A DNA stretch of 64,000 nt from positions 4,772 to 68,771 of the forward strand of contig CALXUY010000036.1 in assembly GCA_944391805.1 (NCBI GenBank), in the 5' to 3' direction. The stretch's first letter is position 1. Each line of letters opens with the position of its first letter. Source of the DNA: an uncultured Clostridia bacterium (GTDB taxonomy: Bacteria > Bacillota > Clostridia > Oscillospirales > CAG-272). The translations under genes and the position numbers were made by a program. Positions 4,931 to 49,434 of this stretch are shown piece after piece. Under the pieces are notes generated by a model, which worked only from the letters and a program-made list of their open reading frames with translations, was not told the origin of the DNA and ran no database searches.

Positions 4931-4967
4931 AAAAACAGGCTCCGGCCGCACTTCAGTGGCCGGAACC
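4931..4967 (-). terminator. Intrinsic terminator of the NfeD-SPFH operon
   Basis: Minus strand reads GGTTCCGGCC...GGCCGGAGCC followed by TGTTTTTTG. Confidence 0.6.
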
Positions 4968-4968
4968 T

Positions 4969-5032
4969 CAGGTTGTAGACCAAAGCAACGGCTTTCATCA
5001 GTCTGACGAAAGCCGTGGCTTTGGCCTATGAG
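4969..5032. mobile_element. Short palindromic derivative of the MITE family seen at 23029 and 48506
   Basis: Starts with the family end CAGGTTGTAGACCAAAGCAACGGCTTTCATCAG, then an inverted imperfect copy of the same end (TCTGACGAAAGCCGTGGCTTTGGCCTATGAG). It abuts the terminator hairpin. Confidence 0.55.
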
Positions 5033-5086
5033 ATCAGGCTATCCCCCCAAAATCTTTGCCAAAGAGTCAAAGCCGCGCCGGCAAAT

Positions 5087-22129: not shown

Positions 22130-22136
22130 AAACGGC

Positions 22137-22182
22137 AAACAACCGGGGCAAAGCCAGCTCGTTGGCTTTGCCCCGGTTGTTT
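22137..22182. terminator. Bidirectional terminator between the membrane protein gene and purC
   Basis: Perfect 19-bp stem AAACAACCGGGGCAAAGCC / GGCTTTGCCCCGGTTGTTT. Confidence 0.7.
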
Positions 22183-22203
22183 GCCCATCCGATAGCGGCG
22201 CGG

Positions 22204-22951: not shown

Positions 22952-23028
22952 TAGCTTTGTTGAATTTTCTTGAAATTCCGCCCGAAAATCGGCAGCAAGA
23001 GAAATGAGCCGGGCACAAAGTCCGGCTC

Positions 23029-23349
23029 CAGACTGTAGACCAAAGCAACGGCTTTCGTCAGTTTGATGAAAGTTTTGATCAAACTTTTTCAAAAGTTTGC
23101 GCGGTGGAGGGCGCGAAGCCCTCTCTCGCAAGGCGGTAAACCGCCAGAAATTTTGCTTCGCAAAAGTTTCCGCCCGCAGGCGGCGAAACAACCCTTTTGG
23201 GCGTTTCTTTTTGGCAAAATCTGCGAAGCAGATTTGCGGCTGAGCCATGCGAAGCCTTTGCTTCTTTCTTTGCGCCTACACGCTCAAAGAAAAAGCGGAC
23301 GAACGTTTTTGCGCAATTTTTATTTGATATGCCTTTTGTCTATAACCTG
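23029..23349. mobile_element. MITE-like non-coding element, copy A (321 bp)
   Basis: Ends CAGACTGTAGACCAAAGC ... GCCTTTTGTCTATAACCTG are imperfect inverted repeats. About 85 bp at the left and 90 bp at the right align with copy B at 48506-48740. Flanked by a duplicated carB terminator hairpin (23004-23028 and 23350-23374). Confidence 0.7.
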
Positions 23350-23399
23350 ATGAGCCGGACACAAAGCCCGGCTCATTGTAGTCGGCCCGAAATGATTGC

Positions 23400-37250: not shown

Positions 37251-37620
37251 TGTGATTGATATGATTGTAGACGAAAGCATTTCCGGCCTTCACAGCGCCG
37301 GCTGATCACTGCGGAAGGACGAGTGCCGCTGCACGGCTGCGCCGCAAAGCAAACCCCGGCTCCCGGTATGCTGCACCTGTCCCCAGATGAAGGGATCGGT
37401 TCACGACTGCAAAACCGTTGCTGCCGCCCGGCAGTGCAATCGTTCCGGAAATCCCGCTTCCCCTGCGCGCTTTGCCATGCTCCATTGCTGCCTCCGCAGC
37501 TCTGGAAGGCGGCCTTCCGGTCCGGGAAAGCACCCGCGCGCAGAAATGCAAACCGGCTGTCCGCTCTGTTGTTTGCCATGCGTCCGGTCTCACAGCATTC
37601 CCTCCTTTTCCGCGCCAACC

Positions 37621-45128: not shown

Positions 45129-45213
45129 GCGGAAGTGGCGGAACTGGCAGACGCGCACGTTTGAGGGGCGTGTGGTTCACACCGTACGGGTTCAAGTCCC
45201 GTTTTCCGCACCA
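45129..45213 (+). tRNA. tRNA-Leu (anticodon GAG), CCA encoded
   Basis: Hand fold: acceptor GCGGAAG/TTTCCGC, anticodon stem CACGT/GCGTG, loop TTGAGGG, long variable arm, T-arm ACGGG-TTCAAGT-CCCGT. Confidence 0.85.
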
Positions 45214-45220
45214 ATACAGT

Positions 45221-45268
45221 AGGAATCCGGACCCATAGCCGATCGGCTATGGGTCCGGATTCCTTTTT
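45221..45268 (+). terminator. Terminator: perfect 44-nt palindrome plus T-run after tRNA-Leu
   Basis: AGGAATCCGGACCCATAGCCGA / TCGGCTATGGGTCCGGATTCCT followed by TTTT. Confidence 0.75.
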
Positions 45269-47587: not shown

Positions 47588-48493
47588 ATGAATTATCGAT
47601 ATGACAATCATTTCAACGCAAGCTGCAATCATTTGCCGGTTGCATATTACAGGCAGCGATCCAGAGCCGACAAATATCTCATTAAGGACACATTCGGTCA
47701 TCTCACATTTGCTTCTCCGCACAACCATGCGGAATTTGAAATCATCCTGTTTACAAAAGGCTCCGGAAAGGTGACAATCGGGTTTACAGACAAGGAGCTT
47801 GCTTTTGAGGAAGGCGATTTGATTCTGATCAATCCCTTTGAATTCCACGGCGGCTATTACGATGCCGACCATCCGGAATGCTCACATCAATGCCTCGATT
47901 TTTCCGTATCGGTGTTGGAGCACCCGCTCACAACCATGGCAAAGAATCTTGCCAACTCGCTTCTGAATCAATCCATTCGCTGTGAGCATCTCTTTTCCCA
48001 CAAAGAAGAACGTTATGAGGAGTTGAAGCAGGCCTTTTTCGACATGTATCACGCGGTGAGTGATGACGCCGAGGATGATTTGCTCTTTTTCGGAGGGTTG
48101 TTTCGCTTTTTTTCCATCGTCAACTCCTGCGGAAAAATACACACTACGCCGAACAGCTCTGTAAAGGACCCCAACCTCGACTTTATCAAGCAAGTACTGA
48201 ACTATATGGAACAGCACTATACCGAAACGATCTATACACGCGACATTGCAAAAGAACTGGCCTATAACAAAGAGCATTTTTGCAGACTTTTCAAAAGCCA
48301 TTTCGCCACATCGTTCACCACGTATCTGACACAGTTCCGCATTGAAAAGGCCAAATCGCTCCTGCTGCAGGAATCATCCACAAAGGTTGCCGAGCTATGC
48401 GGCTTTTCCAGCCAGAGCAATTTTGCAAAATCGTTCAGAGCCCATGTCGGAATTACACCGGCAAAATATCGGAAATTTGTCACGGGAGATTGA
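47588..48493 (+). CDS. AraC family transcriptional regulator (cupin sensor plus HTH)
   Basis: N-terminal cupin-like HNHAEFEIILF...GDLILINPFEFH. C-terminal AraC HTH FCRLFKSHFATSFTTYLTQFRIEKAKSLL...SNFAKSFRAHVGITPAKYR. Confidence 0.85.
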   Translation: MNYRYDNHFNASCNHLPVAYYRQRSRADKYLIKDTFGHLTFASPHNHAEFEIILFTKGSGKVTIGFTDKELAFEEGDLILINPFEFHGGYYDADHPECSHQCLDFSVSVLEHPLTTMAKNLANSLLNQSIRCEHLFSHKEERYEELKQAFFDMYHAVSDDAEDDLLFFGGLFRFFSIVNSCGKIHTTPNSSVKDPNLDFIKQVLNYMEQHYTETIYTRDIAKELAYNKEHFCRLFKSHFATSFTTYLTQFRIEKAKSLLLQESSTKVAELCGFSSQSNFAKSFRAHVGITPAKYRKFVTGD

Positions 48494-48505
48494 GTCTCCC
48501 GTGAT

Positions 48506-48740
48506 CAGACTGTAGACCAAAGCAACAGGTTTCGTCAGTTTGATGAAAGTTTTGATCAAACTTTTTCAAAAGTTTGCGCGGTCGAGGGCGCGTAGCCCTC
48601 GTCGCCGCCCGCAGGCGGCGAAATTCCTATACGGCGCTTTCTTTTTGCCAAGCTTTTTCTTTGCGCCTACATGCTCAAAGAAAAAGCGGACGAGCGCTTT
48701 TGTGCAATTTTTATTTGACGCGCCTTTTGTCTACAACCTG
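48506..48740. mobile_element. MITE-like non-coding element, copy B (235 bp)
   Basis: Ends CAGACTGTAGACCAAAGC ... GCCTTTTGTCTACAACCTG. Flanked by identical 27-nt copies of the AraC-gene terminator hairpin GTCACGGGAGATTGAGTCTCCCGTGAT (48479-48505 and 48741-48767). Confidence 0.75.
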
Positions 48741-48774
48741 GTCACGGGAGATTGAGTCTCCCGTGATTTTTTAT

Positions 48775-49434
48775 TCAATACGATCTCAGGAACCACTCCA
48801 GCCTGTCGGCAATGCGGGCATGTCCCGCATCGTTTGGATGAAGCCTGTCAGGGCAATATTTTTCACTGATGACCGGTATATTGGGCTGAATACCGCTCAT
48901 CGAGTACAGATCCAGCACAGGAATCGCGTAATACTCGGCCGTCTCACGGATCGCTTTGACGTAATCGATCAGCGGAGCGCTTTCCACCGTTTTTTCCCCT
49001 CCGCCGTATTTTCCCAGCTCCTGGCAGCGGTGCAGGGGCGTCATAAAGACAATCACGGCATCGGGATAGGTTTCAGTCAGATACCGCATCAGGACATGAC
49101 ATGCGCCGTAAAAGCTATGTGTGTTGCGGTCTCCAAAGCTGCCCAGCGGAGCGTTGCCGTGACCGAAATCATTGGTCCCGCCAAACACCACCACAATATC
49201 CGCGTTGGGATCCATTTTCTTTGCCAGATCATAAAAATTCCTGTGATCACTCCATGAGCCGTCGTCCTGCTGCTGCGCCGCAAAGCGCTTACCCGCGTCG
49301 CCGTAATTGCGTACCTCGGCAAGCCCCAAACGGTCCTTGAGCAGATTGCAATAAATTTTGTCCTTGGAAGAGACGCCGATTCCCTCGGTGATGCTGTCTC
49401 CCAAGACATTCATGATTTTTCCCTTCAGTTCCAT
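48775..49434 (-). CDS. SGNH/GDSL family hydrolase (esterase)
   Basis: Block I VLGDSITEG, block III FGGTNDF, block V DRLHPN. Confidence 0.8.
   Translation of the reverse strand: MELKGKIMNVLGDSITEGIGVSSKDKIYCNLLKDRLGLAEVRNYGDAGKRFAAQQQDDGSWSDHRNFYDLAKKMDPNADIVVVFGGTNDFGHGNAPLGSFGDRNTHSFYGACHVLMRYLTETYPDAVIVFMTPLHRCQELGKYGGGEKTVESAPLIDYVKAIRETAEYYAIPVLDLYSMSGIQPNIPVISEKYCPDRLHPNDAGHARIADRLEWFLRSY

Follow-up and report, generated by a model that had tools for sequence, protein, structure and literature searches.

A miniature inverted-repeat element of an uncultured Clostridia bacterium duplicates the whole terminator hairpin at its target and probably belongs to an IS1182-family clade

The DNA stretch analyzed here (64,000 nt of contig CALXUY010000036.1 from an uncultured Clostridia bacterium of the CAG-272 lineage, hereafter "the window") harbors three related copies (A, B, and C) of a short repeat, of which copy B is inserted at the terminator of an AraC-family regulator gene and stands between two complete copies of the terminator hairpin. 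The second hairpin is a duplication of the target; at this and other sites the duplicated length follows the local hairpin, and the termini of the element lie at the hairpin feet. Judging from sequence comparisons, we consider it probable that copy B is a MITE (miniature inverted-repeat transposable element) of a hairpin-targeting clade of the IS1182 family, which would attack a cruciform at its 5' feet and thereby leave the length of the duplication to be set by the hairpin.

Window positions 48479-48767 consist of a 27-nt string, the 235-bp element, and the identical 27-nt string (GTCACGGGAGATTGAGTCTCCCGTGAT, start-to-start spacing 262 nt). Each of these flanks contains a hairpin with a 10-bp stem and a 5-nt loop (TCACGGGAGA/TTGAG/TCTCCCGTGA), and the stop codon of the AraC gene (TGA, 48491-48493) lies inside the loop of the first copy. 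A T-run (48768-48772) is found only behind the distal hairpin, and only this copy was scored terminator-like, the proximal one not. Compared with each other, the element ends CAGACTGTAGACCAAAGC and GCCTTTTGTCTACAACCTG (the latter as its reverse complement) agree at 14 of 18 positions. The main features had been described in an earlier sequence-only reading of the window (the 235-bp element with its imperfect ends and identical 27-bp flanks, the flank as the AraC terminator hairpin with the stop codon included, the proximal hairpin cut from its T-tract) and hold upon re-computation. The longest open reading frame (ORF) inside copy B amounts to 71 aa; an Rfam scan of the copy found nothing near threshold, and one of the window a single tRNA elsewhere. 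Matches to the 95-aa ORF of copy A were limited to five short ORFs (79-166 aa) that are unnamed and lack domains; those two that were looked up both lie on related repeat copies. Copy B thus shows what is expected of a MITE, i.e., a short non-coding sequence with terminal inverted repeats, a duplication proven by empty sites, dispersed copies, and termini shared with insertion sequences (IS). The transcript across the copy B region is predicted to fold into a long stem (minimum free energy -146 kcal/mol, z = -11 vs. shuffles). A group IIC intron was considered and rejected, given the size of the element (235 bp vs. at least ~600 nt for the ribozyme), the lack of an Rfam intron match and the presence of a duplication.

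Site B was compared in ten public-metagenome contigs (L001-L010) encoding an identical AraC protein. In the alignment, L001 and L003 proceed from the AraC gene through a single hairpin and TTTTTATT to the lipase gene; L002 and L004 have the same hairpin-element-hairpin order as the window, and L005 and L006 are also filled, with the contig ending inside the element. The inserted block is 262 bp, i.e., the element plus one hairpin. Since strains with the identical AraC protein hold one hairpin followed by the T-run, the flanks of copy B are a true target-site duplication, and the empty allele already carrying two hairpins, which the sequence-only reading had named as the case against it, is the opposite of what L001 and L003 show. 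Their flanks are 0.6-1.3% different from those of the window strain; the empty-site strains are other lineages of the same species. At the same site, two short contigs (L008 and L010) with identical flanks read CAAGAGC and CAACAGC around element positions 20-24 (CAACAGG in the window); copies may have been mixed in assembly, or conversion between copies may have occurred.

The single hairpin of the empty alleles also bears on the idea that the flanking hairpins are owned by the element, as is the case for subterminal palindromes in IS200/IS605 and PATE elements, or that the terminator had been tandemly doubled before insertion. Near-terminal palindromes are indeed duplicated exactly, over 22 bp, in some PATEs (PMC3119063), and with its palindromic flanks included copy B has an inverted repeat of 43 nt. 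However, a doubled or element-owned hairpin is at odds with exactly one copy in L001 and L003, the hairpin sequence is different at every site, and genuine terminal inverted repeats, conserved from one site to the next, bound the element. IS200/IS605 and PATE elements, in contrast, have subterminal palindromes of their own without inverted repeats or duplication, whereas the hairpins here are target-derived. Haloquadratum PATEs were tried as a model and rejected, and we regard either origin as extremely unlikely.

Scanning species-representative genomes with a conserved internal 24-mer of the MITE yielded at least 116 loci, nearly all of them, among the matches listed, in metagenome-assembled genomes (MAGs) of gut Clostridia (Oscillospiraceae, Ruminococcus, 'Eubacteriales'). 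One MAG, JAZQXI01, contains several copies. The left-end pattern retrieved five contigs from metagenomes, mostly broken inside the element, and gave no matches in a first scan of genome contigs; a BLAST of copy A against plasmids matched nothing, and the matches to TGTAGACCAAAGCAAC in viral contigs were judged to be chance only. Besides copy B, six MITE copies retain both flanks, with duplications of ~22 to 45 bp, each within a few bases of its own hairpin. Site B has a duplication of 27 bp and a hairpin of 25 bp; the corresponding values are 25 and 27 bp at site A, 44-45 and 42 bp at L137 (14-bp stem, 14-nt loop), 34-36 and 38 bp at L120, and 22-24 and 22 bp at L084. Two subfamilies with other tips are also flanked by duplicated hairpins: L061 has a duplication of 26-27 bp and a hairpin of 23-24 bp, and L124 a longer, diverged pair. 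Every flank duplication tabulated holds a complete hairpin, and over 16 insertions (MITE and IS, the latter described below) the duplication length follows the local hairpin from ~22 to 45 bp, with no fixed ruler.

Hairpin feet adjoin 17 of the 19 distinct CAGnnTGTAGAC MITE termini, at -2 to +2 nt. By chance, 0.7% of window positions lie equally close to the foot of a hairpin with at least eight pairs (binomial tail for 17/19 termini ~1e-35, the two ends of one insertion not being independent); of the hairpin sites in the window, which has 89 such feet, only three are occupied. Structure-directed insertion through staggered cuts flanking a hairpin or cruciform, as proposed from the letters alone, is therefore borne out by the single-hairpin empty site, by lengths that follow the hairpin, and by termini at the feet. 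The accompanying statement that the same element end lies against a hairpin in all three copies needs revision: it is correct for copy C that one side adjoins a hairpin (other strains at this site identify the abutting end as of the right-end type), but in copies A and B both ends do.

The same lengths argue against a fixed long ruler, i.e., a stagger of ~27-28 bp in the style of the IS1202 subgroup, with the hairpin overlap being fortuitous or due to a slight bias of a symmetric dimer toward symmetric targets. Site B (exactly 27 bp) and site A (25 bp) would fit such a ruler, and Firmicutes members of the IS1202 subgroup, moved by a DDE transposase, have repeats of 26-29 bp (bioRxiv 10.1101/2022.12.17.520857, Supplementary Table 1). 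With 27-28 bp on record in that subgroup (bioRxiv 10.1101/2022.12.17.520857), the earlier remark that 25-27 bp exceeds by far what classical DDE transposons are known to make needs correcting. Yet duplications that vary with the local hairpin, from 22 bp in L231 to 44-45 bp in L137, contradict a ruler. The IS1202 subgroup has a fixed length and AT-rich, non-palindromic targets (bioRxiv 10.1101/2022.12.17.520857), whereas the duplicated DNA here is always palindromic. Its ends (TGTGATTCGAA..., TGTCAATCG..., i.e., TGT or T(a/g)T) are unlike CAGACTGTAGAC, the MITE tips beginning with CAG, and elements with the MITE tips encode a protein of the IS1182 and not of the IS1202 family. The IS1202 family, suspected first for its 27-28 bp repeats, was thus rejected on its non-palindromic repeats and different ends, and a fixed ruler appears very unlikely.

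Further observations concern the structure of individual copies. At L084 (5776-6160), two elements stand in tandem with the same 22-nt hairpin copy behind each, and the right ends read …CCAATACCGAAGCA in place of the usual GTCTACAACCTG; tandem elements are expected if each insertion makes a fresh target. L023 (1100-1160), as well as L233, L236, and L237 (two copies on one scaffold), combine the left flank of one site with the right flank of another, which could result from recombination or inversion between copies, or from assembly chimeras. The MITE interior (48551-48580 and 23074-23103 in the window; L042-L157) contains AAGTTTTGATCAAACTTTTTCAAAAGTTTGCG, a nearly palindromic module with two or three GC-rich hairpins behind it. 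Exact matches to the internal 24-mer are present in more than 116 places in Clostridia MAGs with several unrelated kinds of termini, often with no recognizable ends or duplications, and in L041 (2795-3360, JGI 3300018475) two ordinary terminators enclose three tandem ~190-bp units of the internal module that lack CAGnnTGTAGAC ends.

The terminal 12-18 bases of the MITE (CAGACTGTAGACmAAAG) match those of full-length insertion sequences of 1.57-1.74 kb from Bacillaceae. These relatives were reached by scanning IMG/VR for the degenerate tip CAGRYTGTAGACMAAAG, which produced mostly chance matches; the ends of two contigs (L165 and L205) showed a hairpin and then CAGACTGTAGACAAAAGCC, and a peptide from this type of end matched small ORFs of Lysinibacillus sp. 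Y5S-8. In Lysinibacillus (CP145889.1, L227) we recovered a complete IS of 1744 bp, arranged as CAAGGATGCCTAAAATAGGGCATCCTTA / CAGACTGTAGACAAA ... TTTGTCTACAGTCTG / CAAGGATGCCTAAAATAGGGCATCCTTA and followed by TTTT, whose duplication is an entire 28-bp terminator hairpin. The left end of copy B agrees with the right end of this IS at 17 of 18 bases, and all 12 bases of its tip are common to the ends of the three IS types compared. Similarly, the tips of the sister MITE subfamily, CAGTYTGTCGAAAAAG, resemble the CAGAGTGTCGACAAAAGG end of another IS (L241).

The transposase of the Lysinibacillus IS (449 aa, L227 1141-2490) has the Pfam domains DUF772, DDE_Tnp_1, and DDE_Tnp_1_6, an architecture as in ISKpn6. 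This protein, the one transposase scanned, reached 478.7 bits on the NCBIfam model NF033551 'IS1182 family transposase' (cut-off 270) and 68 bits (cut-off 325) on the model of ISNCY, the group under which IS1202 was formerly filed. Its close relatives, many from Bacillaceae, are labeled IS1182 family transposase by NCBI, and four further IS types (P0050, P0062, P0102, and P0015) have the same Pfam architecture. Nine full-length IS insertions, i.e., L227 and eight insertions of four related IS types, duplicate complete hairpins of 22-33 bp, usually with an A-run before and a T-run after (28 bp in L227, 22 in L231, 33 in L235, 32 in L233/L237, 28 in L241, 25 in L242 and L243, 33 in L259, and 29 in L260; the 32-bp case is a reconstruction from reciprocal flank-exchanged copies on one scaffold). 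In ten short-contig copies of a high-copy IS (L249-L258), inspected by eye, all visible flanks but one are hairpins adjoining the end, and the unmatched flanks are probably assembly chimeras. On the enzyme, the sequence-only reading needs correction, as its class is not an unusual one: what the autonomous IS with these tips code for is an ordinary DDE transposase from the IS1182 family, whose targeting of terminator hairpins is known (PMC5678879, PMC4923244).

Two features of the Bacillaceae IS were seen in passing. A GC-rich stretch of ~130 bp with hairpins (…CGGGCGGACGCTTTCCGCGGGCGG…) in the 5' untranslated part of the AT-rich L227 IS (940-1075) looks like a separate small repeat inserted into it. 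Just past the transposase stop begins a short ORF (43-54 aa) that extends into the right inverted repeat (L227 2501-2632, L165, L205) and has its stop codon at the element tip (…STV* from GTCTGA); as this stretch is also a long subterminal hairpin, its conservation may be structural rather than coding.

The transposase also bears on a further candidate, a Cas1-type (casposase-like) integrase that would duplicate the whole repeat by attack at its borders. Spacer integration in CRISPR arrays duplicates a repeat of 28-37 bp, often palindromic, by staggered attack at both ends, and the likeness is an analogy to this process, in which border attack on opposite strands by Cas1-Cas2 followed by gap repair would equally double a palindromic unit. 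However, Cas1-Cas2 belongs to another enzyme class, and no cas genes are associated here. Elements with the same tips and behavior encode an IS1182-family DDE transposase and no Cas1 (no cas1-like gene was seen between CAGACTGTAGAC ends in at least 20 full-length copies), and casposon integration makes target duplications of a fixed ~14-15 bp. We find this candidate hardly credible.

In DDE transposition, the 3'-OH ends of the transposon join both target strands with a 5' stagger, and gap repair makes the duplication. For copy B we propose that an IS1182-type DDE transposase, which we assume to exist in the MITE's own lineage, would move the element in trans via tips of the form CAGnnTGT(A/C)GAC(A/C)AA. 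Targets would be chosen by DNA shape and not by sequence, namely GC- or AT-rich inverted repeats of the intrinsic-terminator kind, and both 3'-OH ends would join at, or 0-2 nt outside, the 5' hairpin foot of each strand. The end of the left copy and the start of the right one lie no more than 2 nt from the hairpin feet, from which we infer that each strand is attacked at its own 5' foot; as both 5' feet are attacked, the stagger would be the whole inverted repeat, and gap repair would leave one complete hairpin on either side of the element. An extruded cruciform offers the most economical geometry, as the 5' feet would lie opposite each other at the four-way junction and the ordinary spacing of a short stagger would produce a duplication as long as the hairpin. 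Tentatively, we also entertain the idea that the DDE transposase of this clade docks on the four-way junction of the cruciform like a junction-resolving enzyme, with attack at the 5' feet duplicating and attack at the 3' feet deleting the hairpin. The hairpin-primed copy mechanism raised by the sequence-only reading found no support.

An IS1182-clade DDE transposase might instead act on a substrate other than a cruciform, e.g., single-strand hairpins at replication forks or in transcription bubbles, or a symmetric duplex. Such a substrate fits the same sequence data, any model with attack on both 5' feet accounts for the polarity seen, and the targets are transcription terminators, where negative supercoiling and strand opening are to be expected. 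However, a single-strand hairpin leaves the symmetric attack on both strands unexplained, and direct recognition of duplex could hardly cover stems of 8-16 bp with loops of 2-14 nt and unrelated sequences. We thus consider this alternative unlikely, if worth keeping in view.

Several points weigh against our preferred reading, i.e., cruciform attack by an IS1182-family transposase. The substrate may be a single-stranded-DNA hairpin or a bent palindromic duplex rather than a cruciform. The flanks of empty and filled strains fit both an ancestral empty site and a precise loss, and the presence or absence of the element at site B may in part reflect its precise loss when the 27-bp repeats recombined, and not recent insertion alone. 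L011 (whose 119-aa ORF has no Pfam domain), L012, L040, L107, and the degenerate side of copy C have no adjacent hairpin or matching duplication; we read them, without proof, as decayed or as products of recombination between copies. Moreover, the MITE and the Bacillaceae IS have only the terminal 12-18 nt in common, and the hosts of the latter belong to another order of Bacillota. The search for a transposase-encoding master with the same ends, suggested by the sequence-only reading, detected no gene for an IS1182-family transposase in the window, in contigs of the host species or at the 116 listed Clostridia MAG loci. At the MAG loci, this search went by multi-copy ORFs, by inverted termini, and by duplicated hairpins at a spacing of 0.8-4 kb. 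An IS-sized inverted pair in L017 was judged to be due to chance.

Extragenic palindromes are also targeted by ISPpu10 (IS110/IS1111) and IS1397 (IS3), through sequence- or RNA-guided recognition of one repeat family, and elements of this type make no duplication or one of 3-4 bp. They resemble the present element in inserting at extragenic palindromes and differ in recognizing one specific repeat family. The direct-repeat range given by ISfinder for the IS1182 family is 0-60 bp. Other members of the family have short or no repeats (4 bp in ISCaa15, PMC3196728), and the review by Siguier (2015), as quoted in PMC5678879 and PMC4923244, mentions that some members target palindromes 'without detailed data'. 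ISKpn6, ISCaa15, and ISBma2/ISCbo5 share with the transposase described here the DUF772, DDE_Tnp_1, and DDE_Tnp_1_6 domains and the NCBIfam model. When ISKpn6 (pKpQIL) and IS1272 were tried as references for the ends, they proved unlike the MITE ends, except for the word CTGTAGAG in ISKpn6.

The closest comparison is with IS1272 and TnSha1, IS1182-family elements of staphylococci that target hairpins and terminators of 21-85 bp without sequence consensus, often just downstream of genes, and hit the same hairpin repeatedly (PMC5678879, PMC4923244). Both the transposase family of the MITE's autonomous relatives and the preference for inverted repeats or terminators without consensus are alike. 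In IS1272, however, the stem-loop is lost through attack at the 3' feet, with no duplication left behind (PMC5678879), and TnSha1 causes the same deletion at terminators confirmed by RNA-seq (PMC4923244), so that the hairpin is wholly or partly deleted there, whereas here it is duplicated at every well-preserved site (B, A, L137, L120, L084, L061, and the nine IS sites). IS1272 ends (AAAATGAGTCTGGGACATAAA, from an S. haemolyticus plasmid) are also unrelated to CAGACTGTAGAC, and IS1272 and TnSha1 are an autonomous IS and a composite element, whereas the window element is a 235-bp MITE. Doubling of the entire stem-loop has been drawn as a hypothetical pathway (pathway b, Fig. 13 of PMC5678879), with the 3' ends joined at the 5' feet of a cruciform. 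Thus, hairpin and terminator targeting by the IS1182 family is already known, as are long duplications as such (IS1202); in the literature searched we found no account of whole-hairpin duplication with a target-set length, of an IS1182-family MITE, or of the spread of such a MITE in gut Clostridia.

Coordinates of the three copies and of the adjoining features are given in Table 1. Copies A and B share a left block of 95 nt (96% identity) and a right block of 85 nt (91%). Copy A lies between the 3' end of a gene for the large subunit of carbamoyl-phosphate synthase (minus strand, 1071 aa, carB-like) and the promoter of the SAICAR synthase gene. Its hairpin duplication is imperfect in the window, with two differences at paired stem positions. 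A mechanistic footprint was considered for these and rejected, and they represent ordinary drift, since L020 has two identical copies and L022 a perfect stem in the distal one. Copy C is a near-perfect palindrome built from two repeats of the left-end type. At the same site, L030, L031, and L039 carry a full element that is ~210 bp longer (L030 3513-3790), in which a right-end-type repeat adjoins the hairpin with its T-run and the opposite side is degenerate; the window copy looks like the outcome of a deletion and a template-switch 'correction' of a quasi-palindrome. Elsewhere in the window, TGATTGTAGACGAAAGC (37263-37279) has one mismatch to the element tip GTAGACCAAAGC with no recognizable element behind it, and may be a remnant or chance. 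Two perfect palindromes are vacant, one (45221-45264) with 22-nt arms and no loop just past a tRNA gene (45129-45210), the other (22134-22185) with 23-nt arms and a 6-nt loop.

Table 1 The three repeat copies of the window with their flanking hairpins and neighboring genes (positions within the 64,000-nt window)
Feature	Position	Strand	Remark
Hairpin adjoining copy C, 32 nt (11-bp stem, one mismatch, 10-nt loop)	4937..4968		
Copy C, 70-bp palindromized mini-element	4969..5038		only one side adjoins a hairpin
Copy A left 25-bp duplication ATGAGCCGGGCACAAAGTCCGGCTC	23004..23028		distal hairpin copy relative to the minus-strand carB-like gene
MITE copy A, 321 bp	23029..23349	+	end blocks as in B, interior longer; in all ten other contigs spanning the site
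Copy A right 25-bp duplication ATGAGCCGGACACAAAGCCCGGCTC	23350..23374		full hairpin extends to 23376
AraC-family regulator gene	47588..48493	+	Pfam HTH_18, HTH_AraC, AraC_binding; same domains in L001-L010
Proximal copy of the 27-bp target-site duplication	48479..48505		element DNA, not the T-run, now 3' of the hairpin
MITE copy B, 235 bp, non-coding	48506..48740	+	missing from the empty-site alleles L001 and L003
Left terminal inverted repeat of copy B CAGACTGTAGACCAAAGC	48506..48523	+	17/18 vs. right end (reverse complement) of the L227 Lysinibacillus IS
Right terminal inverted repeat of copy B, reverse complement CAGGTTGTAGACAAAAGGC	48722..48740	-	end comparison
Distal copy of the 27-bp duplication	48741..48767		with T-run 48768-48772, sole predicted intrinsic terminator remaining
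GDSL-family lipase/acylhydrolase gene, convergent	48775..49434	-	downstream of the target terminator

The usual view is that each DDE transposase makes target duplications of one fixed length, given by the spacing of its active sites. The same termini with duplications of ~22 to 45 bp, each one complete hairpin, indicate that it is the structure of the target that sets the stagger. If the docking on the four-way junction outlined above is true, the duplication length would be a property of the target and not of the transpososome, an exception to the fixed-length rule, and the clade would constitute a natural tool for multiplying or erasing terminators. These elements and IS1272, by which such targets are deleted, offer a matched pair within one family for studying how folded DNA is recognized and cut. 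For the host, each insertion removes the T-run from the gene-proximal hairpin and lengthens the 3' untranslated region; at site B, AraC transcripts would extend by up to 262 nt, to the distal hairpin copy. Each insertion also creates a new target, because one terminator becomes two hairpins, and leaves long inverted repeats that are able to promote rearrangement, as in the exchanged flanks of L023 and L233/L237. For annotation, duplicated terminators around a short repeat in genomes of gut Clostridia and Bacillaceae can be taken as footprints of this hairpin-duplicating family.

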